A DNA stretch of 64,000 bases from Candidatus Latescibacterota bacterium (GCA_965203175.1 OZ241867.1:5504001-5568000); one strand, 5' to 3'; shown: positions 1 through 35,538, numbered from the stretch's first letter. Numbers and translations are program-made. The notes: generated by a model from the sequence alone, not told the origin.

Positions 1-2
1 AC

Positions 3-221
3 AAAGGCGAGCGCGCCGGCGTCCGCGAGACGCGCAAGCACCTCGCGCTCTACTTCAAAAGCCTACCCCGCGCCTCCGAGTTGCGCCGCCGCCTGCTGAC
101 AACCGCTTCTCTCGCCGAGTTAGCCGATCTGCTAGCCGAGTGGAAAGAACCAGCCGCCGAAGAAGCCGATCTTACCCTGTCAGCAGCCGAAGCCGAAGCC
201 CTCGCTTGGGGAGGTAATTGA
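3..221 (+). CDS. dusB: 3' end of tRNA-dihydrouridine synthase (Dus family), partial
   Basis: Frame from nt 3 reads KGERAGVRETRKHLALYFKSLPRASELRRRL..., resembling the DusB C-terminal RKH..WY.K motif. Stop TGA at 219-221. Confidence 0.6.
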   Translation, partial: KGERAGVRETRKHLALYFKSLPRASELRRRLLTTASLAELADLLAEWKEPAAEEADLTLSAAEAEALAWGGN

Positions 222-229
222 TAACAGCA

Positions 230-1450: not shown

Positions 1451-1518
1451 GCCACTTGTCCAGACGACCGATTTTGTGTATCTAACTGTAGGTACCCGTC
1501 TCCCAATGAGTCCTGCCC

Positions 1519-3531
1519 ATGCGTTTCATCTTTGCCATCCCCTTTTCGTTTCTTCTGCCCAGTGCTCTGTCGGCGCAAATAAGCACTTGGCAGCTCGGCG
1601 GCAGCGACGGCCTTGCATGGTCGGCAAGCGATTCAGTGCACATCTTCATCGACTTCGATTCCATCCCCGGGGCCATCCAGCCCATCTACCTGACTTCTGC
1701 CCAAACTGTCTTTTCTCACCTCGACAACTGGTCTCCGTGGAAATTCCCCCGCGAGATGGGCTATGTCGATGGCCAGCGGCCCCGCGCTTGGAAGCACGGC
1801 TTAGGAGACTCGCGAACCGTACACAATGCCACGTACCTAGTCGATGGCGACAGCACCACCTACAACCCTCCGTCCTCAGACCTGCGGAACTTCGACTGGT
1901 TTACCTTTGACGTGGCAGTGCCCGTCCCGGCCACCCGCTTCGGCTTTTTCACGCCACCGCGTGGTTTCCGCTCGGATGGTACTCCACTAGCCGACGATGC
2001 TGTCCCTGCCTTTGAAGTGAGCGTTGCCACCGAAGCCGATCCCGCATGGCATGGGCACAATTCCTACGCGCGCATCGGGCCGCTTATCGCCGACGTCGCC
2101 GAAAACCTGTCTCCCACCGTGCGAATCGACCTGCCCCGCCAATATGTCCGCTTCATCCGCTGGCGGCGCAACGAGTCCGTACTCGATCCGACCTTGGTCG
2201 TCCAAGAGAACTCGCTGTCGGGTCAAGCGCGGCCAGGCACCATCGGCGACTTTGAACTCTACGCCCACGGGGTCCCGCAGCGCGTGCTGTATCTATCCAA
2301 CATCATCGATCTCGGCGCGGAAGTGAACTTTGGCCGATTGTTCTGGTCGGCGACTTCCATGCGGATGGCAGACGGCACCTTGGTCCCGGCACCTGAAGCG
2401 GCTGTCGGGTTGCGCGTCGAGGTGCGCACCGGTAGGGATCAAGACCCCAATATCTACCGCGAATTCGACGACAAGGGCCGCGAGGTTGAAGTCTCGCGCC
2501 AGCGTTACGAGTTTGAACTCAAGGAGGCGCAAGGCTACGGCTACGTCGCCGGCGAGCGGCCTGGGGTCCGCGCGTCAATAGCCTATGACGAGGACAACTG
2601 GACCTTCTGGTCGCCCGCCTTCTCCGCGCCTGGCCAGCCGCTCAACCTGCACAATGGCTCCCATATCCAAGTCAAAATCACCCTCGATAGCGCGGATTTC
2701 GACGCCTTTACGCGCCTAGATTCACTGTGGATCGAGCAGGCACCCCTCCTAGCGCGCCAGATCGTCGGCGAAGTAGCCCGCCTCGACGACCCGCAACCGA
2801 GCGGTTTCACCGAAGTGGCCCTAGGGCAGGCGACGAGTTTCAGCTACGATATTCGCGCCGACTTTGCAGCCTCCGAGTCGGGCTTCGACGCGCTGCGCAT
2901 TCGCACCGGCAGCCGAGTCCACCTTCAGACGCTGGCAATGGGCGACCCATTGGTGTCCGTCGAGCCCCTCCGGGTCGAGATCAACGACGACGAATTCCGC
3001 ATCGAGTTGCCCGAGCGGGTCCACGCTGCCAACAACGTGCCCATCCGCATCGAGTTCACAACCGATGTCTTCGTCTTCGCCACGACCTTCGAAGGAGAAG
3101 CTATCGACACGACGACCGAACGCCTGCCCCAACCTATTCGGGGCGGCGATGCCACAGCCGCCGTATCGACCAACAGCCTGCGCGTGCTGAGTGCGAAGAC
3201 CGGCCCCATCAATGCAATCCAGAACCTGCGCTTTTCAACACCGGTTTTGACCCCCAACGGCGACCATGTAAACGACCTAGTGCAGGTCTCTTATTCCCTC
3301 TTCCGCCTACCTGCTAGCGTACCCGTCGAACTGCGGGCCTATTCTCTGGATGGCCGGCAAGTCGCACGCCTATCGTTTGCGCCGCAGGCTGCTGGACCGC
3401 AGCACCTTCGCTGGGACGGACGAGACGAGTTGGGACAACTCCTGCCACCCGGCCTCTACCTGCTTGAAGTAGGGCTGCAATCCGACGAGATCAGTGATCA
3501 CCTACTGCGTCCGCTGGGCATCGCCTACTGA
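1519..3531 (+). CDS. Array family A protein A1: secreted, discoidin-like domain plus FlgD-Ig/CTD-like C-terminus
   Basis: Signal peptide ending SA-Q, then WQLGG..G.AW, DLG..VNFGRL.W, TPNGDHVND, WDGRDE.G..LPPGLY. Ends GIAY. Confidence 0.8.
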   Translation: MRFIFAIPFSFLLPSALSAQISTWQLGGSDGLAWSASDSVHIFIDFDSIPGAIQPIYLTSAQTVFSHLDNWSPWKFPREMGYVDGQRPRAWKHGLGDSRTVHNATYLVDGDSTTYNPPSSDLRNFDWFTFDVAVPVPATRFGFFTPPRGFRSDGTPLADDAVPAFEVSVATEADPAWHGHNSYARIGPLIADVAENLSPTVRIDLPRQYVRFIRWRRNESVLDPTLVVQENSLSGQARPGTIGDFELYAHGVPQRVLYLSNIIDLGAEVNFGRLFWSATSMRMADGTLVPAPEAAVGLRVEVRTGRDQDPNIYREFDDKGREVEVSRQRYEFELKEAQGYGYVAGERPGVRASIAYDEDNWTFWSPAFSAPGQPLNLHNGSHIQVKITLDSADFDAFTRLDSLWIEQAPLLARQIVGEVARLDDPQPSGFTEVALGQATSFSYDIRADFAASESGFDALRIRTGSRVHLQTLAMGDPLVSVEPLRVEINDDEFRIELPERVHAANNVPIRIEFTTDVFVFATTFEGEAIDTTTERLPQPIRGGDATAAVSTNSLRVLSAKTGPINAIQNLRFSTPVLTPNGDHVNDLVQVSYSLFRLPASVPVELRAYSLDGRQVARLSFAPQAAGPQHLRWDGRDELGQLLPPGLYLLEVGLQSDEISDHLLRPLGIAY

Positions 3532-3541
3532 AGGTGGAGCT

Positions 3542-5887
3542 ATGCGCTTCCTCGTTGCCTTTGCAGCTTGGCTCGCTTTGCCGACCGTTTCCGGCTGGAC
3601 CGAAATGCTGAGTTTCGACAGCGCAGAAAAATGGCAAAGCTGGACCATGCCTGCCGGGCTAGTACAGGTGGATGCAGAGGGCATGCTGCGTCTGACCAAA
3701 TACCGCAAGGAAGTGGACGCCATCCGCGATGCCCATCTCTTCACCCATTCCACCCAAAAACGCGGCGAAGTGGCAGGCGGAATCTGGCAGGTCGGCAGCG
3801 GAAGCGCGACTGCCGCAAACGCCATCGACGGCGATCCTGCGACCTTCTGGCAGCCCAATCCAGCCGACAAGCTCAAAGATTGGTTCCTCGATATCGACTT
3901 GGGCCGCGCCGTACTCGCCCGCCACATTCGTCTGACCTTTCCCGATCAAGAGGGTGCCCGCCCGCTGCGGCAGTTTACCGTCTATGGCACCACCGGCGCG
4001 CGCATCCAAGCCACGGCCGATGTCTTCAAATACGAGCCAGTCTATCGCACCACCCTGCCCAACCGCGCCACTTCCCTGACCATTCCCCTCGAGTACCCGG
4101 CCGCCGACACCGTCCTGACGGTTGATCCAGACATGGCCATTGATCGAACCTTTGAAAACCGCTACCAAGTGATTCAGTACATTAGTATCGTCGTCGAAGC
4201 CCAGAGCCCAGATGCGGCACTCGCCGAAGTCGAAATACTCACTGTGGGCGACAATATCAGCATCGGCACCGCCGAGCGCGGCACCTTCCTCAACGGCACG
4301 GTAGCCGCGGCCCCCAATAACCTCTTTGACGCCGATATCAACACCACCAACCTCATCACCTCTGGGCGCGGCGACCAAGGTTGGGAGAAGGCCGGGACCT
4401 GGTTCTACGTCGATCTAGGGGCCGTGTTCTTCGTCGATGAACTCTTCCTCTACGTACTCCAACCTTTTGAGGGCACTGCGGGCCATCACCGCGGCTCGGC
4501 CGGCCCAGGTCACAACATCCTAGTTTCGGACGGCTCGCTGAGCGTGGGCACTTCCCTACCCGTACCTGCGCCGCTCGACTACAGCGATCTGCTCACGCAC
4601 GTCAATCCCAAGGCGGATGGCCTCTATCGCATACGCTATAAATTTAGGCCGCGCAGGATGCGCTATATGTTCTGGCACGGCCTGACCGACCGCGATTGGC
4701 AGGAATCCAAATGGGGCGAGTTCATGCTGTTCTCGCCGGGCTATCCCGCTCAAGTCTCACTGCGCTCCGACTTTATCGACCTCGGCCAGATCACCGGCGA
4801 CGAGCGGCCTAAAGTCATCAAGGGCCTGCACTGGGACTCCGACCTGCCTCCTGAAACTAGAATGCAACTGCGCTCGCGTTCGGGCAACGCGCTGGCACCG
4901 ATCTATACCTTCCACAACAAGATCGGCGAAGAGATCACCGAAGAAAAATGGAACAGCTCGCCCAAAGTGCTGCGCGGCCCCATCGACACCACGCTAGTCG
5001 TCGGCGAGGACTGGGACGCTTGGAGCAATGTGTACCAGTTTTCCGGCGAAACCTTTAAATCGCAAAGCCCGCGTCGCTTCGTGCAACTGGAGCTGATTCT
5101 CGCCACCGACCACCCCGAGGTCGCGCCCACAGTCAACGCGCTGTCGATTGAATTCGACGCGGCACTGCTCCAGAGTGCCCGCGGGCGCGTCGAGCCGCGC
5201 AGTGCCTCACCCAACGAGGAGACGGCCTTCACTTATACCCTGTTGCCCAGCGCCAGCCCCGCTGACGTCGGCTTCGACCTAATGCGCTTTGACCTGCCGG
5301 GTCCGATCAATCTGCACAGCGTGAGCGTGGAAAAGGGTGCCGAAACCACCTCGGCGTCGGCCTCCCTGCGCGGAGACTCCCTACTCATCGCTTTACCCGA
5401 ACCAGTCAGAGACGATTCGCTCCACGTCAACTTTACCACCCGCTTAGTGCGCAATGCCACGCTTTTTGCGTTGGACTTAGGCTCCAGCGCGCATCCAGGA
5501 CTGTGGCAGTCGGTCGAACCGGCAGCGCGCCGTGCCAATATCGTCATGCTGCCCGAACTGACCAGCAGCAGCCAGCTCATCGACGACTTTTTCATCTCCT
5601 CGCCGACACTCACGCCCAACGGCGATGGTATCAACGATCAGCTAGAGGTCCGATTCATCGTCCTCAAAGTCGAAGGCCGCGAGCCGCGCGTGAATGTCTT
5701 CGACCTCGCCGGGCGCAAAGTAGCCGTTCTCACGCCAGTCGCCGAGGGATTGCACCGCCTCTTCACATGGGACGGCACCCAAGCCACAGGCGCAGTCGTA
5801 GAGTCTGGCATCTACGTCCTGCGCGTCGATCTGGGTGCCGACTCCGGTGACGATACGGTCCTGCACACCATCTCCGTCGCCTATTAG
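3542..5887 (+). CDS. Array family B protein B1: secreted, two discoidin-like domains plus FlgD-Ig/CTD-like C-terminus
   Basis: ATG 10 nt after the A1 stop, with GGAG upstream. Motifs FDSA..W, AIDGD..T.WQ...W..IDLG, RSRSGN, SPRRFVQLELIL, TPNGDGIND. Ends SVAY. Confidence 0.8.
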   Translation: MRFLVAFAAWLALPTVSGWTEMLSFDSAEKWQSWTMPAGLVQVDAEGMLRLTKYRKEVDAIRDAHLFTHSTQKRGEVAGGIWQVGSGSATAANAIDGDPATFWQPNPADKLKDWFLDIDLGRAVLARHIRLTFPDQEGARPLRQFTVYGTTGARIQATADVFKYEPVYRTTLPNRATSLTIPLEYPAADTVLTVDPDMAIDRTFENRYQVIQYISIVVEAQSPDAALAEVEILTVGDNISIGTAERGTFLNGTVAAAPNNLFDADINTTNLITSGRGDQGWEKAGTWFYVDLGAVFFVDELFLYVLQPFEGTAGHHRGSAGPGHNILVSDGSLSVGTSLPVPAPLDYSDLLTHVNPKADGLYRIRYKFRPRRMRYMFWHGLTDRDWQESKWGEFMLFSPGYPAQVSLRSDFIDLGQITGDERPKVIKGLHWDSDLPPETRMQLRSRSGNALAPIYTFHNKIGEEITEEKWNSSPKVLRGPIDTTLVVGEDWDAWSNVYQFSGETFKSQSPRRFVQLELILATDHPEVAPTVNALSIEFDAALLQSARGRVEPRSASPNEETAFTYTLLPSASPADVGFDLMRFDLPGPINLHSVSVEKGAETTSASASLRGDSLLIALPEPVRDDSLHVNFTTRLVRNATLFALDLGSSAHPGLWQSVEPAARRANIVMLPELTSSSQLIDDFFISSPTLTPNGDGINDQLEVRFIVLKVEGREPRVNVFDLAGRKVAVLTPVAEGLHRLFTWDGTQATGAVVESGIYVLRVDLGADSGDDTVLHTISVAY

Positions 5888-5983
5888 AACCTCTATCTCA
5901 GCGGTAATTATTTAATTCGGCGCATGGCTCTTTTTGCGTTATCTTCCCGCTAGCATTTCACCTCGACGGAGGTACAGTGTCCG

Positions 5984-7993
5984 ATGCGCAGTGCTTGGCC
6001 TTTGATCCTAGTCCTCGCCGTTGCGCCCAGCCATGCTCAAGTAGAAAAGTGGCAACTGGGCGGTAGTGGGGAGGCGTGGGACCAGCGCGACTCTCTCCAA
6101 GTCCTCGTCGATTTTGCCGACGGTGCAATCCAGCCGCTCTATTTGCAGCCGCACCAAAACGTCATTCACCTGCTGGAAAACTGGGAATTCTGGCGCGAAC
6201 CCTTCTTACACAACCTCGGCTACGTCGATGGCCAGAAGCCGCGCTTTTGGAACCGCTGGGGCGGTGCCGGCGGCGATCCGACCCAGAGCGGCGTATTCTT
6301 AGTCGATCGCGATTCCACAACCTACAACGCCCCTAAGAGCCAATCGATAACCAGTACCTTCTTTTCGATTGACACCGCCGTGCCAATCCCCGGTGTCGGC
6401 TTCGGCTTCTTCACGCCCTCGCAGGGTTTTCGCTCCGACGGCACGCCGCTGCCTTTCGACACCACGCCGGCCTTCGACGTCTCCATCGGTTCAGACTTAG
6501 AACCCGCGGTCAACTGGGGCGGCAGAGACCTGTTCGAACAGGTCATCGCCAACGTGGGTGCCAACTTCGACCCCGTCGTCCGCATCGACTTCCCGCGCCA
6601 ATACGTGCGCTTCTTTCGCTGGCGCCGACAGACCTCGCTGGCCGACGAGGAAGCCCTCAACATCTGCCGCGACTGCGGCGGCCAAGGCAACCAAGCCATC
6701 GCGCTCAAAGGCTCAATCGGGGGATTTGAGGTCTTCGGCCAAGGCATACCCCAGCGCGTCGTGTACCTCAGCCAAGTTGTCGATCTGGGCCAAGTCGTGA
6801 ATTTCGGTCGCCTGCACTGGGCGGGCACGCCGCTGCGCCTGGTCGATGGCGAGATCGTCGAAGATGCCAACGCCCCCGTCTGGCTCAAGGCCAAGGTCCG
6901 CGTCGGTCGCGACGACAGCCCGGCGACCTACCACGAATACACCAACATCGGCCGCGAGAAGGAGGTCTCGCGCGAGCACTACGAGTCGCTCACCGCCCAA
7001 CTCAACCGCGATCCACGGCCCGGGATTCGCGCCTCCATCGGCTACGATTCCGCCAACTGGTCCTTCTGGTCGGTGCCTTTTACCGAATCGGGCCAACTCA
7101 TCCGGCTCAGAAGCGGATCGCATCTACAGGTGGACCTTTCTCTGGAAAGCCGCGACTTCGACGCTTGGATGCGGATTGACTCGCTGTGGATTGAGACCGC
7201 GCCCCTATTGGCCGCCGAGGTTTTCGCCGAAGTGGCTCGGCGCGACGACCCGCAGCCCAAGCGCGGTTTTACTGAAGTGGCCTTGGGCCAAGAGACCGAA
7301 TTCGTCTATCAGGTGCGAGCCGAATTCGACGACGCCAGCACGCCTGGCTTCGACGCGCTCAGGATCCACACCGGCAGCCGCACCGCCTTTCGCCGCCTCG
7401 AAATGGGCACCCCGCTCGCTCCCGTCGATCCAGTCGCAGTAGCGGAAGACGACGGGTTGGTGATCCAATTGCCCCAGCGCGTCACTAGCACCGACAACGC
7501 GCCGGTCCGCGTGACCTTCGCCACCGCAGTTTTTGAATTCGCCTCCACCTTTACCGGCGAGATATTTGCCGCCGACAGCGAATCACTCCCCCAGCCGATT
7601 CTCGCCGGCGACGCCGACGAAGCAGTCTCCACCAATAGCCTACGGGTGCTGGGCGCGAACGACGAAACACCTGATTTCATCCAATCGCTCGCTTTGTCCA
7701 CCCCGGTGCTGACCCCCAATGGCGACGGCGTCCACGACCAACTCCAGATGCGTTATTCGCTCTTCCGCCTCCCCGGTGCAGTACCCGTAGCACTGGAAGT
7801 GTACGCCTTGGACGGCCGTCGCATCGCCCGCCTCGACAAGGGCCTGCAAGACTCGGGCGCGCAGGCGATCACGTGGGACGGCCGCGACGAGACCGGCCAA
7901 CTCCTCCCGCCGGGCCTCTACTTGCTCTCCATCGCGCTGCAAACCCAGTTCGTCCAGGCCAAACAACTATTGGCCGTGGGCATTGCCTATTAG
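5984..7993 (+). CDS. Array family A protein A2
   Basis: Same motif order as A1 (SHA-Q, WQLGG, GFRSDGTPL, VNFGRL, TPNGDGVHD). Ends GIAY. Confidence 0.8.
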   Translation: MRSAWPLILVLAVAPSHAQVEKWQLGGSGEAWDQRDSLQVLVDFADGAIQPLYLQPHQNVIHLLENWEFWREPFLHNLGYVDGQKPRFWNRWGGAGGDPTQSGVFLVDRDSTTYNAPKSQSITSTFFSIDTAVPIPGVGFGFFTPSQGFRSDGTPLPFDTTPAFDVSIGSDLEPAVNWGGRDLFEQVIANVGANFDPVVRIDFPRQYVRFFRWRRQTSLADEEALNICRDCGGQGNQAIALKGSIGGFEVFGQGIPQRVVYLSQVVDLGQVVNFGRLHWAGTPLRLVDGEIVEDANAPVWLKAKVRVGRDDSPATYHEYTNIGREKEVSREHYESLTAQLNRDPRPGIRASIGYDSANWSFWSVPFTESGQLIRLRSGSHLQVDLSLESRDFDAWMRIDSLWIETAPLLAAEVFAEVARRDDPQPKRGFTEVALGQETEFVYQVRAEFDDASTPGFDALRIHTGSRTAFRRLEMGTPLAPVDPVAVAEDDGLVIQLPQRVTSTDNAPVRVTFATAVFEFASTFTGEIFAADSESLPQPILAGDADEAVSTNSLRVLGANDETPDFIQSLALSTPVLTPNGDGVHDQLQMRYSLFRLPGAVPVALEVYALDGRRIARLDKGLQDSGAQAITWDGRDETGQLLPPGLYLLSIALQTQFVQAKQLLAVGIAY

Positions 7994-7999
7994 CGGCCA

Positions 8000-10336
8000 A
8001 TGCGTGCTTTGTTGCTCTCGGTTCTTTGTTCGGCGACAGTGCTCGCCGCCGCGGAATTCCGCTTCGACAGCGCTGCTAGCTGGTCAACCTGGAAGATGCC
8101 CCATGGCTTGATCGAATTTGACGACCGCGGCCAGTTGCGACTGATCAAATTCCGCAAGGATATCAACGCCATCGCCAACGCGACCGAATTCACTCATCTC
8201 ACTCGCTCGCGCGGTGCCAACGTGCCGGGCGGGATCTGGGAAGCCGGCAGCAACCCGGCCGCAGCCGGGCGGATCATTGACGGCGACCGCAAGACCTTCT
8301 GGCAGGCCTCTGCCGACGACGACTTAGGCGATTGGTTCGTGCAGATTGACCTCGGCCGCACCGTGCTAGCCAACGAGATCCGCCTGCACTTCCCCGACCA
8401 AGCAGGGGCACGCCCCTTCCGCCAGTTCACCGTTTTCACCGCCACGGGCATTACTTCCGACGCCCTCGACGATCTTTTTATTTTTCGCCCGGTCTATCTC
8501 ACGACTCAACCCAACCGGGATACCACCATCTCGATTCCCCTCGCCTTCGACCTCCAAGACAGCGCCCAGGTCCTCGACCCCAATCGAGACGTCGATCTGG
8601 AAAAATTCAACCAATATCGCCTCATCCAGTACATCAACTTTACCGTTGAAGACTTCGATCCCGAAGGTGCCCTAGCCGAGGTCGAAGTCTTCGCCGTTGG
8701 CGACAACGTCAGCTTGGGCAACGACCAGCGCGGCGGCATCATCGACGGGCTTACCGCCCGCTCCACCGAGAATATTCTCGACGGCGACATGAACACCGCC
8801 AGTTCCATCCTGCCCGTGGGCTTTGAGGGCCGCGTCCGCACTTGGGAGGATCAGGGCACTTGGTTTTTCATCGACCTAGGAGCCGTATTCTGGATCGACG
8901 AGCTTTTCCTCTACGCGCTCAGGCCGCGCGAGGGCACGGTCGGGAGCGTGGCCAGCCCGCCGCGAGGCTTTACCTTCCTCCACTCAGACGGCACCCGCGT
9001 CATCAGCTCCCAACTTCCCATCCCCGAATCCTTCGACTTCGCTACCCTCATCGACCAACCCGACGCCGATCCCATGCGCTATCTGCGCTATCTGTTCCAA
9101 CCGCGCAGAGTCCGCTACCTGTTTTGGCACGCCCACATCCCCCAAGGGTGGGGTTCGCGCTGGACCGAACTGATGCTGTTTTCGCCGGGCCATCCCGCCG
9201 AGGTCGTCATGCGCTCGGACTTTATCGATCTCGGCAAGACTGCTGGCGATGGACGTCCCAAAGTCATCAGCAACCTCTCTTGGGACGCCGACATCCCACC
9301 TAGCACTCGCCTGCTAGTGCGCTCGCGCTCGGGCAATACCCAAGGCGAAGTCTATGCTTTCCACGACAAGATCGGCGAGCCGATCACCGAGGAGAAATGG
9401 CTCAGCCTACCCAAAGTGCTGCGGGGAAGGATCGACACCTCCGTCGTGGTCAGCGAAGACTGGGATGCGTGGAGCGAGGCGTACAACTTTTCCGGCGAGT
9501 CATTCAAGTCGCAAAGCCCGCGCCGCTTCGTACAGTTGGAACTGATCCTGTCAACCGATGATCCACAGGTGGCACCCGCGATTGACGCGCTGTCCCTCGA
9601 GTACGAGGACGCGCTGTTGCAGGGCGCACGCGGCCTGATTGCCCCCAGAGTCGCCCTGCCCAACGAGGACACCCGCTTCACCTATACCCTGTTGTCCGCA
9701 GCCGATGCCGAGGACACGGGTTTCGACATACTGCGCTTTGACCTTCCCGCTAAGGCTGCCGATGTCGAAATTCGCGTGAGCGATGCCCATATCGAGCCAT
9801 CTTCCATAGCCATCCGCGCCGACACCCTCCAGATCGGCCTGCCGCGTGCGATCACCGCCGACTCCGTCCAAGTCAGCTTCACCACCCGCGTAGTACACAA
9901 CGCCACGCTCTTCGGCCTCGACTTGGGTTCGAGCACCCATCCAGATCTGTGGCAATCGGTCGAGCCGCTGATGCGCCGCGCCAATATCGTCATGCTCCCC
10001 ACTCTGACCGGCACCACTCAGCTCATCGACGAACTCTCGATTTCCTCACCGATACTCACCCCCAACGGCGACGGCATCAACGACGCAGTGGTTATCCGCT
10101 TCGTCGCCTTCAAGGTCCAGCAACGCACGCCCCAAGTGCGCATTTTCGATCTCGCCGGACGGCCAGTCACTGAACTGGCGACTCCGGTCATCGACGGCGT
10201 GGCCTACGTTTTCACCTGGAACGGACGCGCTACTCAAGGCAACCTCGTACCGCCCGGCACCTATCTCTGCCGCATCGACCTAGCGGCTGACGCTGGCGAC
10301 GATACAGCGCTGCGCACCATCGCCGTAGCGTACTGA
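8000..10336 (+). CDS. Array family B protein B2
   Basis: Starts 6 nt after the A2 stop and has the same motif order as B1. Ends AVAY. Confidence 0.8.
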   Translation: MRALLLSVLCSATVLAAAEFRFDSAASWSTWKMPHGLIEFDDRGQLRLIKFRKDINAIANATEFTHLTRSRGANVPGGIWEAGSNPAAAGRIIDGDRKTFWQASADDDLGDWFVQIDLGRTVLANEIRLHFPDQAGARPFRQFTVFTATGITSDALDDLFIFRPVYLTTQPNRDTTISIPLAFDLQDSAQVLDPNRDVDLEKFNQYRLIQYINFTVEDFDPEGALAEVEVFAVGDNVSLGNDQRGGIIDGLTARSTENILDGDMNTASSILPVGFEGRVRTWEDQGTWFFIDLGAVFWIDELFLYALRPREGTVGSVASPPRGFTFLHSDGTRVISSQLPIPESFDFATLIDQPDADPMRYLRYLFQPRRVRYLFWHAHIPQGWGSRWTELMLFSPGHPAEVVMRSDFIDLGKTAGDGRPKVISNLSWDADIPPSTRLLVRSRSGNTQGEVYAFHDKIGEPITEEKWLSLPKVLRGRIDTSVVVSEDWDAWSEAYNFSGESFKSQSPRRFVQLELILSTDDPQVAPAIDALSLEYEDALLQGARGLIAPRVALPNEDTRFTYTLLSAADAEDTGFDILRFDLPAKAADVEIRVSDAHIEPSSIAIRADTLQIGLPRAITADSVQVSFTTRVVHNATLFGLDLGSSTHPDLWQSVEPLMRRANIVMLPTLTGTTQLIDELSISSPILTPNGDGINDAVVIRFVAFKVQQRTPQVRIFDLAGRPVTELATPVIDGVAYVFTWNGRATQGNLVPPGTYLCRIDLAADAGDDTALRTIAVAY

Positions 10337-10403
10337 TATTGCTCAAATAGGACAATTACTTACGTCGCATTATATTAATCCTTTCTTCGGAAGGAGAGCC
10401 ATT

Positions 10404-12437
10404 ATGCGCCGTGCCACAATCGTCCTGTTCACCCTAATTCTAGCGCAAAGTGCCACCGCCCAGATTTCCCACTGGCAACTAGGCGGCAGCGGCCTAGCCT
10501 GGAGCGAGAACGACACCACCCGCCTCTTCGTCGATTTCGCAACGACCCCCGGTGCCATCCAGCCCACGTACTTCACGCAGGACGAGACGGTTTTTTCCCA
10601 CATCGGCAATTGGGCCTTCTGGCGCGACCCCAGTGACCGCATCTTCGACTACCTCGACGGCGAAACACCCCGGATGTGGAAGTGGAACCACGGCGTGCCC
10701 GATCCATCGGAAAACGGCTCCTGGCTCATCGACAGCGACCCTATCACCTACAATCCGCCCAAAGCCGACCGCATTGAAAAGGAAACTTTCACCATGGATT
10801 TGGCCGTGTCGGTGCCAGCGGTGGCCTTTGGCTTTATCCCGCCCAGCGAAGGCTTTCGATCCGACGGGACCCCGCTGGAAACGGACTTCGTTCCCGCCTT
10901 TCAGGTGACCGCCTCGGTCGCGCCCGAACCTCCAGTCCTCGAAGGCAATGTCAACCCACTCTCCACCGTCATCGCCGATGTTGACAACAATTTTACCCCG
11001 CGGGTCCGCATTGACTTCAACCGCCAGTATCTGCGCTTTTTCCGCTACCGAAGGACGCTCTCGCTACTGGATGAGGACGCCCAAGCCAAGAGCGGCAATG
11101 TCGCCTTTGCTCTCATCGGCTCGATCAGCGAATTCCAGCTCTTCGCCCAAGGCGTGCCGCAGCAGGCCATCTACAAGACCAAGATAATCGACCTCGGCAA
11201 ACCCGTGAATTTCGGGCGGCTGTTCTGGCAGGCGACGAAATTCCGCATGGTCAATGGGACCCCGGTGGAAACCCCCGACGCGGCGGCGCAACTTAAGATT
11301 GAGGTGCGCACCGGCTTAGACGACGATCCGGCCGTCTATCACGAATACATGGACACCGGACTGGAGCGGGTAGTCTCGCGCGACCACTACGAAAATGCCC
11401 TGCGCACCCGCTTCGTGCGTATTACCGCTGCATCCGACCTGAGCGAACGCCAGCCCAAGCCGGGCGTCCGCGCGTCCATCGGCTACGATTCAGACAACTG
11501 GACTTTCTGGTCCGCACCCTTCGTCGAATCGGGCCAACCGATCAACCTGCGCAACGGCACCCATTTGCAGTTCCGCGTCACCATGGAAAGCGATTCCTTC
11601 GACGACTTCGTGCACCTCGACTCGCTGTGGCTCGAAACCGCCCCGCTGTTGGCCGCCAACGTGCGCGGCGAAGTGGCTCCCCTAGACGATCCACAGCCCG
11701 CCAGCGGGATCACTCAAGTCCCCTTGGGCGAAGCAATAGAATTTGTCTATGATCTCCAAGCCGATTTCGCGACAGTTGACGCACCCGGCTTCGACCTGTT
11801 GCGCATTCGCACGGGGCACCAAACCGAACTCAAAAGCCTACAACTAGGCGAGAGCCGCACGGAAACTGCGCCTGCTGAGATCACCCAAGAGCCCGAGGGC
11901 CTACTCATCCACCTGCCCGAGCGCATCACCCGCGCCAACAATCCGCCGATCCGCATTGTCTTTGGCACGGAGATCTTTGAATTCGCAACCACTTTCCAGA
12001 GCGAGGTCCTAGACAGCGAACGCGACGTTCTGCCGCAACCTGTAGTCGGTGCTGATGTCGGCGCGGCCCTCTCGACCAACAGCCTGCGCGTGCTCGGCAC
12101 CACGGGGCAAACAACCGCCTTCATCCAGAACCTGACCTTTTCCTCTTCGGTCTTTACGCCCAACGGCGACGGTATCAACGACGAACTGCGCGTGGCCTAT
12201 TCGCTGTTCCGCCTGCCCGAAACCGTTCCCGTCGTCCTCGAGGTCTATAGCCTCGACGGGCGGCGCGTGGCCCTCGTCGAGGCCGGCTTGCAGAGCGCGG
12301 GGCCGCAGAGCCTGCAATGGGACGGGCGCGATGAATCGGGTCGGCGGCTGACGCCCGGTCTCTACTTGGTGGCTTTAGACCTGCGCTCGGAATTTGCTGC
12401 CGATCCCCAACTCCGTCCCTTGGGCATTGCCTACTAA
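10404..12437 (+). CDS. Array family A protein A3
   Basis: GGAG RBS, ATA-Q signal cleavage site and family A motifs. Ends GIAY. Confidence 0.85.
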   Translation: MRRATIVLFTLILAQSATAQISHWQLGGSGLAWSENDTTRLFVDFATTPGAIQPTYFTQDETVFSHIGNWAFWRDPSDRIFDYLDGETPRMWKWNHGVPDPSENGSWLIDSDPITYNPPKADRIEKETFTMDLAVSVPAVAFGFIPPSEGFRSDGTPLETDFVPAFQVTASVAPEPPVLEGNVNPLSTVIADVDNNFTPRVRIDFNRQYLRFFRYRRTLSLLDEDAQAKSGNVAFALIGSISEFQLFAQGVPQQAIYKTKIIDLGKPVNFGRLFWQATKFRMVNGTPVETPDAAAQLKIEVRTGLDDDPAVYHEYMDTGLERVVSRDHYENALRTRFVRITAASDLSERQPKPGVRASIGYDSDNWTFWSAPFVESGQPINLRNGTHLQFRVTMESDSFDDFVHLDSLWLETAPLLAANVRGEVAPLDDPQPASGITQVPLGEAIEFVYDLQADFATVDAPGFDLLRIRTGHQTELKSLQLGESRTETAPAEITQEPEGLLIHLPERITRANNPPIRIVFGTEIFEFATTFQSEVLDSERDVLPQPVVGADVGAALSTNSLRVLGTTGQTTAFIQNLTFSSSVFTPNGDGINDELRVAYSLFRLPETVPVVLEVYSLDGRRVALVEAGLQSAGPQSLQWDGRDESGRRLTPGLYLVALDLRSEFAADPQLRPLGIAY

Positions 12438-12447
12438 GGAAGGCTCG

Positions 12448-12564
12448 ATGCGACGCGCAACCCAAGGAGACCTCGTACCACTCGGCACCTATCTCTGCCG
12501 CATCGCCCTAGCGGCTGACGCTGGCGACGCTACAGCGCTGCGCACCATCGCCGTAGCGTACTGA
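12448..12564 (+). pseudogene. Chimeric 38-aa B-family remnant: B start codons fused in frame to the B2-like C-terminus
   Basis: Translates MRRATQGDLVPLGTYLCRIALAADAGDATALRTIAVAY*. The 5' part matches the B3 start (14678) and the 3' part matches 10224-10336. Confidence 0.85.
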
Positions 12565-12633
12565 TTGTTTAAATAGGATAATTGATTCCGGCGCATTATA
12601 TTACCCATGCTTCCCGCAAAAAGGAGGGTCATC

Positions 12634-14667
12634 ATGCGTCGAGCCACAATCGTCCTGTTCACCCTAATTTTAGCGCAAAGTGCCACCGCCCAGATTTCCC
12701 ACTGGCAACTAGGCGGCAGCGGCCTAGCCTGGAGCGAGAACGACACCACCCGCCTCTTCGTCGATTTCGCAACGACCCCTGGTGCCATCCAGCCCACGTA
12801 CTTAACGCTAGACGAGACGGTTTTTTCCCACATCGACAATTGGGCCTTTTGGCGCGACCCCAGCGACCGCATTTTCGACTACCTCGACGGCGAAACACCC
12901 CGGATGTGGAAGTGGAACAACGGCGTGCCCGATCCATCGGAAAACGGCTCCTGGCTCATCGACGGCGACCCTCTCACCTATAACCCCCCAATGGCCGACC
13001 TCGTCGAAAAAGAAAGCTTCACCATGGATTTAGCCGTGGCGGTACCAGCGGTGGCCTTTGGCTTTATCTCGCCCAGTGAGGGCTTTCGTGTCGATGGGAC
13101 CCCTCTGGAAACGGACTTCGTCCCCGCCTTTCAGGTGACCGCCTCAGTCGCGCCCGAACCTCCAGTCCTCGAAGGCAATGTCAACCCACTCTCCACCGTC
13201 ATCGCCGATGTTGACAACAATTTTACCCCGCAGATCCGCTTCGACTTCAACCGCCAGTATCTGCGCTTCTTTCGCTACCGCCGGATTATCTCGATACTAG
13301 ACGAGGACGCCCAAGCCAAGATCAGCAAAATCACCTTCTCCCTCATCGGCACAATCAGCGAGTTCCAACTCTTTGCCCAAGGAATACCGCAGCGGAGCAT
13401 CTACAAGACCAAGATAACCGACCTCGGCAAACCCGTGAATTTCGGGCGGCTGTTCTGGCAGGCGACAAAGTTCCGCATGGTCGATGGGACCCCAGTGGAA
13501 ACCCCCAACGCGGCGGCCCAGATCAAGGTCGAGGTGCGCACTGGCCTAGACGACGACCCGGCCGTCTATCACGAGTACATGGATACCGGACTGGAGCGGG
13601 TAGTTTCGCGCGACCACTACGAAAACGCCCTGCGCACCCGCTTCGTGCGCATCGGCTCCTCATCCGACCTGAGCGAACGCCAGCCCAAGCCGGGCATCCG
13701 CGCATCCATCGGCTATGATTCAGACAACTGGACTTTCTGGTCCGCACCCTTCGTCGAATCGGGCCAACCAATCAACCTGCGCAACGGCACCCATTTGCAG
13801 TTCCGCGTCACCATGGAAAGCGATTCCTTCGACGATTTCGTGCGCCTCGACTCGCTGTGGCTCGAAACCGCCCCGCTGTTGGCCGCCAACGTACGCGGCG
13901 AAGTGGCTCCCCTAGACGATCCACAGCCCGCCAGCGGGATCACTCAAGTCCCCTTGGGCGAAGCAATAGAATTTGTCTATGATCTCCAAGCCGATTTCGC
14001 GACGGTTGACGCCCCCGGCTTCGACCTGTTGCGCATTCACACAGGGCACCAAACCGAACTCAAAAGCCTGCAACTAGGCGAGAGCCGCACGGAAACTGCG
14101 CCTGCTGAGATCACCCAAGAGCCCGAGGGCCTACTCATTCACCTGCCCGAGCGCATCACCCGCGCCAACAATCCGCCGATCCGCATTGTCTTTGGCACGG
14201 AGATCTTTGAATTCGCAACCACCTTCCAGAGCGAGGTCCTAGACAGCGAACGCGATGTTCTGCCGCAACCTGTAGTCGGTGCTGATGTCGGCGCGGCCCT
14301 CTCGACCAACAGCCTGCGCGTGCTCGGCACCACGGGGCAAACAACCGCCTTCATCCAGAACCTGACCTTTTCCTCTTCGGTCTTTACGCCCAACGGCGAC
14401 GGTATCAACGACGAACTGCGCGTGGCCTATTCGCTGTTCCGCCTGCCCGAAACCGTTCCCGTCGTCCTCGAGGTCTATAGCCTCGACGGGCGGCGCGTGG
14501 CCCTCGTCGAGGCCGGCTTGCAGAGCGCGGGGCCGCAGAGCTTGCAATGGGATGGCCGTGATGAAACAGGTCGGCGGCTGACGCCCGGTCTCTACTTGGT
14601 GGCTTTAGACCTGCGCTCGGAATTTGCTGCCGATGCCCAACTCCGCCCCTTGGGCATTGCCTACTAA
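12634..14667 (+). CDS. Array family A protein A4 (recent paralog of A3)
   Basis: AAGGAGG RBS before ATG 12634. Colinear with A3. Confidence 0.85.
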   Translation: MRRATIVLFTLILAQSATAQISHWQLGGSGLAWSENDTTRLFVDFATTPGAIQPTYLTLDETVFSHIDNWAFWRDPSDRIFDYLDGETPRMWKWNNGVPDPSENGSWLIDGDPLTYNPPMADLVEKESFTMDLAVAVPAVAFGFISPSEGFRVDGTPLETDFVPAFQVTASVAPEPPVLEGNVNPLSTVIADVDNNFTPQIRFDFNRQYLRFFRYRRIISILDEDAQAKISKITFSLIGTISEFQLFAQGIPQRSIYKTKITDLGKPVNFGRLFWQATKFRMVDGTPVETPNAAAQIKVEVRTGLDDDPAVYHEYMDTGLERVVSRDHYENALRTRFVRIGSSSDLSERQPKPGIRASIGYDSDNWTFWSAPFVESGQPINLRNGTHLQFRVTMESDSFDDFVRLDSLWLETAPLLAANVRGEVAPLDDPQPASGITQVPLGEAIEFVYDLQADFATVDAPGFDLLRIHTGHQTELKSLQLGESRTETAPAEITQEPEGLLIHLPERITRANNPPIRIVFGTEIFEFATTFQSEVLDSERDVLPQPVVGADVGAALSTNSLRVLGTTGQTTAFIQNLTFSSSVFTPNGDGINDELRVAYSLFRLPETVPVVLEVYSLDGRRVALVEAGLQSAGPQSLQWDGRDETGRRLTPGLYLVALDLRSEFAADAQLRPLGIAY

Positions 14668-14677
14668 GGAGGGTTCG

Positions 14678-17029
14678 ATGCGACGTGCAATCATCGCCTA
14701 CCTCGTGCTAGCCGTCCCACTCGCCGCTGACATGCTCTCCTTTGACAGCGCCGAGGAATGGGCCCAATGGCAACAGCCCTTCGGTTTGGTCCAGGTCGGC
14801 GAACAGGGCCAGCTCTCACTCGTCAAATTCCGCAAGGATATCAACCTCGTCGAGAACGCGCACCTCTTCGTCCACGAGACCCGTACCCGGGGCGATGCCG
14901 TCGCCGGTGGGCTCTGGCAAGCCGGCTCCAACGAGGCCGACGCCCCGCTGGCCATCGACGGCGATCCAACGACCTATTGGCAACCCAGCCCGGACGACGC
15001 CCCCGAGGATTGGTTTATCACCATCGACTTAGGCCGCGCTGCCCTGGCCCGCGAGATTCGCCTAAAATTCCCCGACCAAGAGGACGCGCGTCCATTCCGC
15101 CAATTCCGCGTCTTCACAACCTCCGGCGTGCGCATCTCGGCCACCGAAGACCTCTTTCTCTACCGCCAAGCCTTCCGCACCACGCGCCCCAACGCCGAAT
15201 CAGAAATTGTCATCCCGTTGCGCTACGCTGGTCGCGACAGCGCGCTAGTGTTTGACCTTGATTTGGATCTAACGCCCACAGAACGCAACGACTACCGGTT
15301 AATCCAGTACATCCAAATCATTTCCGAAGAGCAGAACGCCAACGCCGCCCTCGCCGAGGTCGAGGTCATCGGCATTGGCGACAACATTGCCATAGGCACC
15401 AGCCTACGCGGCAATTTCAAAGAAGGCGATGGCACCGGCTCCACCCCCAACCTCTTCGACGCCAACCTCAACACCAACAATACCGTCACCGGCTGCCGTG
15501 GTAATCTGTCGGGATGGGCCGAAGGTGGCACGTGGTTCCGCGCGGATCTAGGAGCGACATTCTTTATCGACGAGATGTTCCTCTATTCCATGCGGCCAGA
15601 CGAAGGCACATTGGGTTTCACCGTCTCTGGGGCTGGGCCAGGACACACCATCCTCTTTTCCGACGGCACCCCGGCCACGGGCACCGCCCCACCCGTCGAA
15701 GTGCCCGAAAACGTCGATTACGAAGAGGTCTTCTCCCATCCGGCCCCCAACGCCGACGACCTGCTCTACATGCGCTATCTGTTTGAGCCGCGCAAGGCCC
15801 GCTACCTGTTCTGGCGCGGAATTAGCTGCAAGGGATGGGGTATCGTCAAGTGGGGTGAGTTACAACTATTCTCACCGGGTTATCCGGCCCAAGTCGAGTT
15901 GCGGTCGGACTTTATCAACCTCGGCGAGGTAGCCGGCGATGGGCGGCCCAAAGTCATCAAGGCCCTGCACTGGGACGCCGACTTGCCTCCGGGCACCCGC
16001 TTGCAATTGCGCTCCCGCTCGGGCAATGCGCTCAGCGCGGAGTTCACCTTTTACAACAAGAAGGGCGATCTGGTCACCGAGGAGAAGTGGAACAGCTTGC
16101 CCAAGGTGATCAGGGGACCTGTTGACTCGACCTTAGTCACGGGCGAAGACTGGAACGAGTTCAGCAATATCTACCAGTTTTCGGGCGAGGCCTTCAAATC
16201 GGCCAGTCCGCGCCGCTTCATATTGCTGGAGATGATCCTCTCCACCGACGACCCCGCCGTCGCCCCGACCGTCAATTCAGTCTCCGTCGAGTTCGAGGAG
16301 GCTCTAGTCCAAGGCGCGCGCGGCAGCGTCGCTCCCCGCGAGGCCAACCCCAACCAAGACACGCACTTCACCTACACCCTCTGGCCCGAGACCGACGAAC
16401 TCGACAGCGGCTTCGACCTAATGCGCTTCACCGTCCCCGAACCTGTTGATCTCCAGAGCGTCTCGGTGATGGTAGGTGCAGAATCGGTCGTTCCGGCTAC
16501 CCTGGACATGCAGGCCGACTCGCTGCTCATCGAGTTGCCGCAGGCGATTTCCGGCGACTCGCTGCAAGTGAGCTTCACTACCCGCCTGCTGCAAAACGCC
16601 ACCGTCTTTACCCTCGACCTCGGCTTGAGCGAAACACCGGGTCTATGGCAATCGGTCGAGGCGGCCGAGCGCCGCTCCAACATCGTCATGCTACCCGAAC
16701 TGACCAGCAGCGGCCAGCTCATCAGCGACCTGCAACTAGCCTCTACGACCGTAACCCCCAACGGCGACGGCATCAACGACCAGCTAGAGGTGCGATTTGT
16801 CGCCTTCAAAGTCGAGGGCTCGGAGCCAAGAGTGGAAGTTTTCGACCTAGCCGGACGCCAAGTAGCAGTCCTCACCCCAAGCGCCGAAGGCTCGCAACGC
16901 CTCTTCACTTGGGACGGCCGCGACGCCGACGGAGCGAGCGCCGCACCCGGCCTGTACGTCCTGCGCGTCAATCTGGGTGCCGATGCAGGCAATGACACTG
17001 CGTTCCGCACCATTGCCGTGGCGTACTAA
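14678..17029 (+). CDS. Array family B protein B3
   Basis: AAGGAGG RBS, ATG 10 nt after the A4 stop, and family B motifs. Ends AVAY. Confidence 0.8.
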   Translation: MRRAIIAYLVLAVPLAADMLSFDSAEEWAQWQQPFGLVQVGEQGQLSLVKFRKDINLVENAHLFVHETRTRGDAVAGGLWQAGSNEADAPLAIDGDPTTYWQPSPDDAPEDWFITIDLGRAALAREIRLKFPDQEDARPFRQFRVFTTSGVRISATEDLFLYRQAFRTTRPNAESEIVIPLRYAGRDSALVFDLDLDLTPTERNDYRLIQYIQIISEEQNANAALAEVEVIGIGDNIAIGTSLRGNFKEGDGTGSTPNLFDANLNTNNTVTGCRGNLSGWAEGGTWFRADLGATFFIDEMFLYSMRPDEGTLGFTVSGAGPGHTILFSDGTPATGTAPPVEVPENVDYEEVFSHPAPNADDLLYMRYLFEPRKARYLFWRGISCKGWGIVKWGELQLFSPGYPAQVELRSDFINLGEVAGDGRPKVIKALHWDADLPPGTRLQLRSRSGNALSAEFTFYNKKGDLVTEEKWNSLPKVIRGPVDSTLVTGEDWNEFSNIYQFSGEAFKSASPRRFILLEMILSTDDPAVAPTVNSVSVEFEEALVQGARGSVAPREANPNQDTHFTYTLWPETDELDSGFDLMRFTVPEPVDLQSVSVMVGAESVVPATLDMQADSLLIELPQAISGDSLQVSFTTRLLQNATVFTLDLGLSETPGLWQSVEAAERRSNIVMLPELTSSGQLISDLQLASTTVTPNGDGINDQLEVRFVAFKVEGSEPRVEVFDLAGRQVAVLTPSAEGSQRLFTWDGRDADGASAAPGLYVLRVNLGADAGNDTAFRTIAVAY

Positions 17030-17033
17030 TCCT

Positions 17034-18164
17034 ATGGCCGAACAAACCTACGACCTCTTGGTGCGCGCCCCGCGTCTCTTCTGTGCGGATAGCGGCCTAG
17101 ATGGCCCTGGCGCAGTCGCCATTCGCGGCGACCGCATTGTCGCCTCCGGCCCCGCCGTCGAGGGACCGGTCCACACCGTACTCGACTTCCCCGATGCCCT
17201 CCTCCTCCCCGGCCTAGTCGATCTGCACGCCCATCCGGCCCGCGGCCAATCGCGCTTTGGCATCGACCCAGACATCCACTTTTTGCCGCGCGGCGTCACC
17301 ACCGTCATGTCCCAAGGCGATGCCGGGGCTGTGAACATCGACGACTATCGCCGCACCGTGATCGAGGCCTCGCGCACCCGAGTGCTCCTAGCCATCAACC
17401 TGTGCAAACGCGGCGAGACCCACCCCGTGCGCTGCTTCAACGACTTGGCCGACGCCGATGCCCAAGCCTGCGCCGACGCTATTGCCGCAGACGACCGCAG
17501 CATTTGGGGCATTGCCGTCACCGTCACCGGCGGGGCCTGCGCCGACGGCCTCGACCCGCGTCCCATTATGGCCGCCGGGCTAGAGGCCGCGGAATTGAGC
17601 GGCAAACCACTGCTGGTGGGCACTCGCCTCAAACCCGACTGGCCCCGCCGCGAACAACTCCCCCTGTTGCGCCCCGGCGACGTGGTGACCTACTCCCTCA
17701 ATGCCTTGCCAGAAAACCTGATGGACGGCGACCGCATTGCCGACGACGTATGGGAAGCTCGCCAGCGCGGCGTCCTCTTCGACTTGGGCCACGGCATGAA
17801 CTCCTTCAGCTTTCCCATTGCCGAGGCCACCATTGCCGAGGGCTTCCTCGTCGATACGGTTTCGACCGACCAGTACCACCGCCACGTTGACAGCCGTCCC
17901 CAGCACGACCTCCCCCGCACGATGTCCAAGCTCATCGCCGCTGGCATGGACGAAGCAGAAGTATTCGCCCGCGCCACGGCCCGCCCCGCCGCCGTGCTGG
18001 GCCTAGAGGGCGAAGTCGGCAGCTTGGCTCCGGGTGCCTGCGCCGACCTAGCCGTGCTGCGCTGGAACGAAGAAGCCCTGCCCCTGCGCGACGTCAACGG
18101 CGAGGAGCGGCCCGGCGGCTGTTGGGAACCGGTGGCTACTATCCGCGGCGGCCAAGTGGTTTAG
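17034..18164 (+). CDS. Metal-dependent amidohydrolase/deacetylase (dihydroorotase-like family)
   Basis: Motifs PGLVDLHAH, RGVTT, FDLGHG..SFSF, STD, and G.LAPGACADL. Confidence 0.85.
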   Translation: MAEQTYDLLVRAPRLFCADSGLDGPGAVAIRGDRIVASGPAVEGPVHTVLDFPDALLLPGLVDLHAHPARGQSRFGIDPDIHFLPRGVTTVMSQGDAGAVNIDDYRRTVIEASRTRVLLAINLCKRGETHPVRCFNDLADADAQACADAIAADDRSIWGIAVTVTGGACADGLDPRPIMAAGLEAAELSGKPLLVGTRLKPDWPRREQLPLLRPGDVVTYSLNALPENLMDGDRIADDVWEARQRGVLFDLGHGMNSFSFPIAEATIAEGFLVDTVSTDQYHRHVDSRPQHDLPRTMSKLIAAGMDEAEVFARATARPAAVLGLEGEVGSLAPGACADLAVLRWNEEALPLRDVNGEERPGGCWEPVATIRGGQVV

Positions 18165-18199
18165 GGCCGTCCATTTCAACAATCGAGGATCAAAACACA

Positions 18200-35460: not shown

Positions 35461-35513
35461 AAACCCGCCGGCACCATGCGCGCCATGCCATGCGTCGGCG
35501 GGTTTGGCTTTTG
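35461..35513 (+). terminator. Possible terminator hairpin after exbBDD
   Basis: AAACCCGCCG (35461-35470) pairs with CGGCGGGTTT (35496-35505), followed by GGCTTTTG. The loop is long (25 nt). Confidence 0.4.
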
Positions 35514-35538
35514 TAGAACTAACGTTAGGAGGACAACC

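Follow-up and report, generated by a model that had tools for sequence, protein, structure and literature searches.

A tandem array of seven large genes occupies positions 1519 to 17029 of a stretch of 64,000 nucleotides (nt) from the genome of a Candidatus Latescibacterota bacterium (GCA_965203175.1 OZ241867.1:5504001-5568000), referred to here as the window. The genes belong to two families, a short form (A) and a long form (B), which stand in the order A-B, A-B, A, A-B, all on the + strand. Latescibacterota are uncultured, widespread and thought to degrade polysaccharides. On balance, A and B are best taken for co-expressed, exported, non-catalytic surface glycan-binding proteins (lectins) that act together.

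Layout of the array and its internal duplication

An earlier prediction, made from the sequence alone, described an alternating array of two gene families in which every B begins 6-10 nt after an A and every A follows a spacer of 67-96 nt. Open reading frame (ORF) calls agree with this description: seven intact genes and one 38-codon ORF are present (Table 1), the gaps from A stop to B start measure 10, 6 and 10 nt, with a further 10 nt ahead of the 38-codon ORF, and A1, A2, A3 and A4 are preceded by spacers of 68, 96, 67 and 69 nt, respectively. A Shine-Dalgarno-like motif, AAGGA(A/G)GG, overlaps the A stop codon. Because the ribosome-binding site of B thereby lies across the end of A, translation of B is likely to be coupled to that of A.

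The original prediction also placed promoter-like hexamers in the spacers, which a scan of positions 1-17500 does not bear out. With a sigma-70 consensus that may not suit Latescibacterota, two sites were found compared with 3.4 +/- 1.8 in shuffled sequences, and just one of them (10349-10376, in the B2-A3 spacer) falls inside any spacer. Terminator-like sites show no excess in the same scan (15 found, 14.7 expected from shuffles). Both one promoter per pair and a single operon running from the upstream MR_MLE gene to the downstream oxygenase may be compatible with these counts. A single study contributed four metatranscriptome libraries with contigs that overlap parts of A1, B1 and B2 at 93-95% identity; where such cover is lacking, the libraries are uninformative. 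One contig of 193 nt contains the first 141 nt of B1, and its upstream letters read L-R-P-L-G-I-A-Y-stop, the conserved end of A. This contig fits co-transcription in a relative and provides a weak hint of expression.

The 38-codon ORF between A3 and A4 had been regarded as the remnant of a B gene. In an alignment with the B2 tail, the spacer and the B4 start, its opening 12 nt correspond to the start of a B gene and the remaining ~105 nt to the end of B2; downstream come a second copy of the B2-A3 spacer and A4. The ORF is the junction of a tandem duplication rather than a decayed full-length B gene, and the duplicated segment comprises the B2 tail, the spacer, A3 and the B start. The unduplicated order, A1-B1-A2-B2-A3-B4, is found in one genome of the same genus (G011), while another (G010) has the duplicated form. 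A3 and A4 share 94% identity, and purifying selection acts on both, the overall ratio of nonsynonymous to synonymous substitution (dN/dS) being 0.18. Synonymous divergence is uneven along the genes: dS is 0.32 in codons 56-250 and 0.07 in codons 361-677. The low dS of the 3' part suggests later gene conversion, which would have affected the 3' two-fifths of A3 and A4 after an older duplication common to several species. Positive selection between the two copies was considered and is ruled out, dN/dS being 0.08-0.22 in all segments.

Table 1. Genes, spacers and flanking genes by window position (nt), and domains of A1 and B1 by residue.
Feature	Position	Strand	Description
Enolase-superfamily (MR_MLE) dehydratase-type gene	218-1450	+	68 nt before A1; Pfam MR_MLE_C 153 bits
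A1, short form	1519-3531	+	670 amino acids (aa)
B1, long form	3542-5887	+	781 aa
B1-A2 spacer	5888-5983	+	96 nt; no called sigma-70-like or terminator-like site
A2, short form	5984-7993	+	669 aa
B2, long form	8000-10336	+	778 aa; start 6 nt past A2 stop
B2-A3 spacer	10337-10403	+	67 nt; sequence repeated ahead of A4
A3, short form	10404-12437	+	677 aa
38-codon junction ORF	12448-12564	+	Duplication junction between A3 and A4
A4, short form	12634-14667	+	677 aa from ATG at 12634; tandem duplicate of A3
B4, long form	14678-17029	+	783 aa; start 10 nt past A4 stop
Downstream flank: amidohydrolase, dihydrodipicolinate synthase (DHDPS)-family lyase, 2-oxoglutarate (2OG)-Fe(II) oxygenase	16977-19704	+	Pfam
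A1 leader	N-terminus		Signal-peptide-like
A1 D2	residues ~58-250		Inserted domain, predicted CBM32/discoidin fold
A1 D3	N-terminal strands + residues 251-410		Predicted beta-sandwich
A1 D4	residues 414-560		Predicted immunoglobulin (Ig)-like domain
A1 C-terminal domain	residues 563-670		Putative type IX secretion system (T9SS)-type domain
B1 D1	residues ~55-237		Extra domain, predicted CBM32/F5-8C fold; tandem discoidin pair with D2

Domain architecture of A and B

All seven proteins start with M-R, followed by ~15-20 hydrophobic residues and a small-residue site (...LSA before Q in A1, ...AAA before E in B2). Judged by eye, both families therefore carry the signal-peptide-like leaders that had been claimed for them, and a lipobox cysteine at or near the leader end is found in none of the seven. 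The motifs by which the original prediction recognized its domains can all be read in the translations, and when 100 A-type and 78 B-type sequences are aligned, they fall on columns that hardly vary. Profile-profile alignment pairs residues 102-670 of A with residues 256-781 of B (probability 100, E 2.6e-77), so that B amounts to A with one extra N-terminal domain of the carbohydrate-binding module 32 (CBM32) fold. The proposal of ancient paralogs sharing one architecture, with one discoidin-like domain in A and two in B, is borne out by this alignment.

AlphaFold2 models built from the family alignments are all-beta, with a predicted local distance difference (pLDDT) of 89.2 and a predicted template modeling score (pTM) of 0.77 for A1, and values of 94.3 and 0.88 for B1. 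Exhaustive structural alignment of the models (VIA-align) superposes the discoidin-like domains of both families on solved CBM32 modules: residues 62-250 of A1 match the CBM32 4a42_B with a Z of 13.1 and a root-mean-square deviation (rmsd) of 2.4 over 123 residues, and residues 55-237 of B1 match the same module with a Z of 16.7 and an rmsd of 2.0 over 125 residues, both clearly exceeding the background. The modeled tandem of B1 (55-404) resembles the b1b2 domains of neuropilin (2qqi_A; Z 13.6, rmsd 4.9 over 272 residues). Further along the chain, the Ig-like structure 7me6_A is matched by A1 414-560 (Z 10.4, rmsd 3.3 over 114 residues) and by B1 547-675 (Z 11.9, rmsd 3.0 over 115 residues), and A1 563-670 aligns with the C-terminal domain of PorU (6za2_B; Z 12.2, rmsd 2.4 over 99 residues). 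Matches to D3 span several domains. They include the phage tail protein 9nwi_Y (Z 12.0, rmsd 2.3 over 122 residues), 8jov_A, DDR1 (4ag4_A, Z 9.9) and the tandem CBM32 of ZmpB, and the modeled fold of D3 is a beta-sandwich, with nothing narrower claimed. Foldseek comparison of the whole models with the PDB returned generic multi-domain beta-sandwich matches with TM-scores of at most 0.17 and was uninformative.

Searches with sequence profiles capture parts of the same architecture. FlgD_ig is the sole Pfam match of A1, at 26.5 bits, and reaches at least 27 bits in A2, A3, A4 and B4. CHU_C is found in B1, B2 and B4 at 28.6-30.8 bits against a cut-off of 27 (29 in B1, 30.8 in B2). PF22633 (F5_F8_type_C_2) scores 24.7-28.1 bits in the same three proteins against a cut-off of 27.8, which B2 alone passes (28.1). 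No NCBIfam model is matched above its cut-off by any of the seven proteins. A profile of 100 A-type sequences retrieved nine PDB chains, of FlgD-type Ig domains and, more weakly, of C5a peptidase, all aligned to the tail (profile positions 580-668), and the nearest ESM Atlas clusters are all hypothetical proteins. No enzyme fold or family was found for A or B in Pfam, NCBIfam, the PDB profile search or the structural alignment, in line with the earlier statement that the proteins lack a catalytic motif. Across eight paralogous pairs, variability peaks in D2 (mean identity 0.44 in A and 0.46 in B) and conservation in D3 (0.55 in A and 0.66 in B).

The pair as a unit of a large family

From the 6.58-Mb genome, hidden Markov models (HMMs) built from the seven window proteins recover 169 family ORFs with scores of at least 55 bits. 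Together these paralogs cover 384 kb, or 5.8% of the genome DNA, so the supposed expansion into a repertoire is real. They cluster into ~19 subfamilies, the window A proteins falling in subfamily "c" and the window B proteins in subfamily "e", and 58 of the 169 have the extra N-terminal domain. Family members adjoin on the same strand in 65 cases, with a short-then-long order in 31, long-then-short in 12, short-short in 19 and long-long in three. A short gene lies directly upstream of 14 of the 16 "e" (B-type) genes. No short gene lies directly upstream of 12 of the 14 long genes of another subfamily, "f"; solitary "c" genes are found at 1217895, 4962833, 5233468 and 6242551, and one locus has the order c-e-e-e.

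For 16 pairs, the tree of the A members and that of the B members have eight of 13 splits in common, whereas none of 10,000 label shuffles gave more than four. The congruence that had been proposed as a check is therefore present, and it identifies the pair as the unit of duplication; the A-B bicistron described earlier as the repeating unit is also the unit of inheritance. A supported conflict exists as well, in that A1 groups with the pair at 5029718 and B1 does not, which suggests occasional reshuffling of partners. A Mantel test over all 60 adjacent family pairs (r 0.33, exceeded in none of 2000 permutations) is in accord with co-duplication but mixes pair types and treats kin that are not independent, and for this reason the comparison of the 16 pairs is relied on instead. 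Nine closely related c-e pairs form one clade, supported at 100 by the A tree and at 99 by the B tree. The three window pairs are not one another's nearest relatives: A2/B2 is nearest to the pair at 4818215 and A4/B4 to that at 1831358.

When the neighbors of all family members are clustered, several families recur. These are a ~912-aa family with 60 copies and no Pfam or NCBIfam match, a ~560-aa SurA-like peptidyl-prolyl isomerase (PPIase) with 32 copies, and two further families without assignment, of ~313 aa (35 copies) and ~265 aa (14 copies). A cluster of ~563 aa has 53 copies, two sampled members of which are FG-GAP/ASPIC and TPR proteins. The neighbors are organized in stereotyped cassettes that combine two or three lectin paralogs with one or two ~900-aa proteins, the SurA-like PPIase and small proteins, as at 200700-218800 and 899800-917800 of contig C1 of this genome (G000:C1). 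Within four genes of the window array there is no member of these recurrent families, and no gene for a ~900-aa protein, a lipoprotein or a chaperone. The window pairs belong to the clade of nine stand-alone pairs, which are without cassette partners, and the array is a stripped-down form of a larger multi-gene cassette system that had been missed in the original prediction.

The family and its order extend beyond this genome. At E <= 1e-100, A1-like genes occur in all 12 genomes of the same genus and in none of eight genomes of other families in the class. First-look candidates number 117-277 per genome in this genus compared with 12-37 in other families of the class. In a survey that scored 17 candidates per genome, 36 of the 61 Latescibacterota genomes, the window's own included, have a match to a B-type profile at E <= 1e-20, with none in the 16 genomes of family f2 or the three of family f4. 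Among 56 long-form matches listed from genomes other than the window's, 21 have a short form upstream on the same strand within 400 nt; four lie at contig edges and 31 have no listed short form. These counts are lower bounds, 111 further matches lying beyond those listed. The 21 matches come from at least 14 genomes in six families (f1, f6, f9, f11, f12 and f13), and the A-then-B adjacency, which the original prediction had put forward for checking across genomes, thus recurs across the phylum. The homologs seen are named "hypothetical protein" or "FlgD immunoglobulin-like domain containing protein" and come from genomes labeled Latescibacterota or Gemmatimonadota; a representative library holds 1462 clusters at E <= 0.001. 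Within the genus the array is syntenic. An amidohydrolase follows B4 in G010 and G011, and in G009 (C1:440000-455000) the 2OG oxygenase comes directly after B4, without amidohydrolase and lyase. G009 is a more distant genome of the genus, and in its array a B1-like gene (67% identity) comes first, ahead of an A1-like gene (59%).

Conserved pairing of this kind raises the question of an obligate two-chain complex, in which A and B would form a heterodimer or an alternating co-polymer and each paralogous pair would be cognate. The tight coupling distances of 6-10 nt, the congruent trees and the short-then-long order kept in six families of the phylum are consistent with such a complex, and D3, the most conserved domain in both chains, could be the common interface. 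Congruent trees, however, would also arise from co-duplication of neighbors alone. Many members are solitary, as seen in 12 of the 14 "f" genes, the four "c" genes and the c-e-e-e locus, and since both forms are represented among them they argue against obligate pairing for the superfamily as a whole. A3 lost its B through the duplication and yet remains under purifying selection and is kept in several species, and the conflict between A1 and B1 suggests that partners can be exchanged. A search with A1 among proteins of 1174-3350 aa found no fused A+B protein at E <= 1e-20, which is weak evidence. Prediction of a complex between A1 20-410 and B1 20-545, made from separate alignments, without controls and with the Ig-like and tail domains omitted, reached no verdict (score 0.00, mark 0.32) and counts neither for nor against binding. 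Taken together, an obligate complex is a tentative and rather doubtful explanation of the pairing.

Export, glycan binding and known systems

The reading of A and B as surface glycan-binding proteins presupposes a route out of the cell. Both proteins would leave the cytoplasm by Sec and would most likely cross the outer membrane by a type IX-like pathway that recognizes the C-terminal beta-sandwich domain. The genome encodes SprA (618 bits) and PorU (632 bits), each over its cut-off. A PorV-like gene adjoins porU (147 bits, below a cut-off of 250), and the tail of PorU matches dozens of C-termini in the genome. According to the available portions of two articles, T9SS cargo carries C-terminal sorting domains, and cargo of type B is anchored by PorP/SprF-like proteins (PMC9143113, PMC12618676). 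A and B resemble such cargo in having a signal peptide and a ~100-residue C-terminal beta-sandwich that, in the models, superposes on the C-terminal domain of PorU. They differ in missing the curated type A and type B sorting models, and GldL and GldM are undetected in the genome; no PorP/SprF-like gene adjoins the window array. A and B are thus probable cargo of a T9SS-like pathway rather than proven T9SS substrates. With GldL and GldM undetected and GldK below threshold, the export route may differ from the Bacteroidota system, either doing without the known motor or relying on one that cannot be recognized. Elsewhere in the window, a 503-aa protein (45486-46997) has a Por_Secre_tail domain (Pfam, 27.7 bits), which brings the kinds of T9SS-like tail in the window to two.

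Outside the cell, the CBM32/discoidin-fold modules would be displayed as surface glycan binders, A presenting one module on a conserved stalk of beta-sandwich and Ig domains and B presenting two in tandem. If each pair is produced from one message with coupled translation, A and B would appear together and, in the manner of SusE and SusF, engage a common target next to each other, with or without direct contact. Across its members, the repertoire would offer the cell many glycan specificities, and the 169-copy family is probably a large cell-surface glycan-recognition repertoire.

Several observations weigh against this interpretation. Neither T9SS sorting-domain model attains its cut-off: the best TIGR04131 score is 19.6 bits (cut-off 35) and the best TIGR04183 score 18.1 bits (cut-off 23). 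Models of GldM (TIGR03517, PF12080, PF12081) and GldL (TIGR03513) are unmatched, which for the TIGRFAM models is weak evidence because their controls were silent too, and GldK is met by partial matches of at most 84 bits against a cut-off of 350. The discoidin family PF00754 (F5_F8_type_C) scores 23.4-26.6 bits in B1, B2 and B4 (26.6 in B1) against a cut-off of 28.2, and the four A proteins match neither PF00754 nor PF22633 in Pfam. Likeness of the modeled fold alone does not prove sugar binding of the CBM32 kind. The RNA-library contigs derive from a relative, could contain DNA and do not establish a single transcript. Finally, the array has no specific link to any carbohydrate-active enzyme, transporter or regulator.

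In a more far-reaching version of the same interpretation, a Latescibacterota-specific system for capturing and importing glycans would take the place of SusC/D, and the A-B pair would be its minimal, exchangeable "specificity cartridge". The pairs would be exported by a T9SS-like route without GldL and GldM and would dock, as cognate hetero-oligomers, in cis or in trans onto the ~900-aa proteins with their 60 copies. If so, stand-alone arrays such as that in the window would widen the range of glycans served by a limited set of ~900-aa proteins. This version is speculative and we consider it unlikely.

The modules might also serve as adhesins or in the recognition of hosts or partners, with eukaryote-like tandem discoidins binding the surface or matrix of a host or neighbor rather than nutrients and a large repertoire reflecting varied targets. 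The likeness of the tandem to neuropilin b1b2 (Z 13.6 over 272 residues) is consistent with this view, as are the ankyrin-repeat, TIR and Fic proteins encoded in the window and the copy number, which is highest in this genus. Yet the family is spread over many families of Latescibacterota, and cassettes with a ~900-aa protein and a SurA-like chaperone look more like machinery for uptake or assembly. A role in adhesion, which overlaps with the preferred reading in that both imply surface glycan binding, is quite improbable as the main explanation. A protective coat or S-layer-like lattice using lectin folds as building blocks is very unlikely: the proteins are all-beta, multi-domain, rigid (pTM 0.88) and present in very many copies, and the S-layer protein 7ptp_A is among the Foldseek matches, but those matches have TM-scores of at most 0.17, and a lattice is usually made from one or a few highly expressed genes rather than from 169 diverged paralogs at 25-55% identity.

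As surface glycan-binding proteins, A and B have a counterpart in SusE and SusF of Bacteroides thetaiotaomicron. According to the available portion of PMC4173775, these are neighbors with partial homology to each other that bind glycans at the surface without catalysis, SusE through two tandem CBMs and SusF through three. The claim that no characterized system shows a comparable paired organization was therefore overstated, at least with respect to that account (PMC4173775). SusE/SusF are the closest characterized analog in logic: A and B are likewise adjacent paralogs of multi-domain beta-sandwich architecture with n and n+1 predicted binding modules, and a SusE-like protein (7m1a/7m1b) is among their structural matches (Z 10.1-12.1). 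The differences are considerable. SusE and SusF are lipoproteins, whereas A and B lack the lipobox cysteine and end in a T9SS-type tail. SusE/SusF lie beside SusC/SusD and an enzyme in a regulated locus, and no SusD or TonB-dependent receptor family was found among the 41 window ORFs in Pfam, the remaining genome not having been searched for SusC/D. No sequence relationship between the two systems is detectable, and SusE and SusF can substitute for each other and are not known as an obligate pair. Because anchoring, locus type and sequences differ, A and B are not members of the SusE/SusF family.

At the level of single modules, A and B match the fold of the CBM32 or F5/8 type C modules of Clostridium perfringens GH89, NanJ and ZmpB, and their tandem resembles CBM32-1/2 of ZmpB as well as neuropilin b1b2. 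Classical CBM32s are appended to enzymes; in contrast, A and B have no recognizable enzyme domain, and their Pfam matches are mostly at or below cut-off. In terms of domains, A and B combine modules of predicted CBM32 fold with the features of probable T9SS-type cargo. Neither the family nor its scale and conserved pairing seem to have been described in the literature searched, where nothing was found on Latescibacter with type IX secretion or discoidin, nor, among the papers listed, with T9SS, CBM32, FlgD, Por secretion or carbohydrate-binding modules (subscription journals and supplements lay outside the scope). In the available portion of PMC12993501, retrieved in a search on Latescibacter, sponges and eukaryotic-like proteins, the terms "secretion system", "discoidin", "FlgD" and "lectin" are absent.

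One family that takes up 5.8% of a 6.6-Mb genome, paired and in cassettes, is the leading candidate for the surface recognition machinery of the phylum. It would provide a second, independent case, beside SusE/SusF, of paired glycan binders with n and n+1 modules, and it suggests large-scale use of T9SS-type tails outside Bacteroidota with the usual motor proteins undetected. Since the predicted folds are confident and the domain boundaries clear, binding by A and B and the formation of a complex between them are directly testable with recombinant ectodomains.

Other genes of the window show looser relations to the array. The MR_MLE gene ahead of A1 holds the same position in G010, G011 and G002. 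MR_MLE genes are unusually numerous in this genome, with 53 paralogs, and were considered as specific partners of the family; six of the 53 lie beside a family member compared with a background of 340 of 4472 (p 0.21). This candidate was rejected for lack of enrichment, and the MR_MLE gene is probably not a specific partner. Further downstream, a BNR/sialidase-like gene (23159-24349, - strand), a sortilin/BNR-repeat gene (35476-36468) and an FG-GAP gene with a rhamnogalacturonan-lyase-11-like C-terminal domain (36472-37842) are possible glycan-processing genes, none of them next to the array. The window also encodes an ankyrin-repeat protein (37855-38868), a Fic/DOC protein (39008-40168) and a TIR-domain protein (59201-60637). 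Four paralogs of PhyH-family dioxygenases lie within 26 kb (19673-20575, 28808-29668, 40354-41445 and 44542-45369), and the 2OG-Fe(II) oxygenase of the downstream flank is at 19060-19704.

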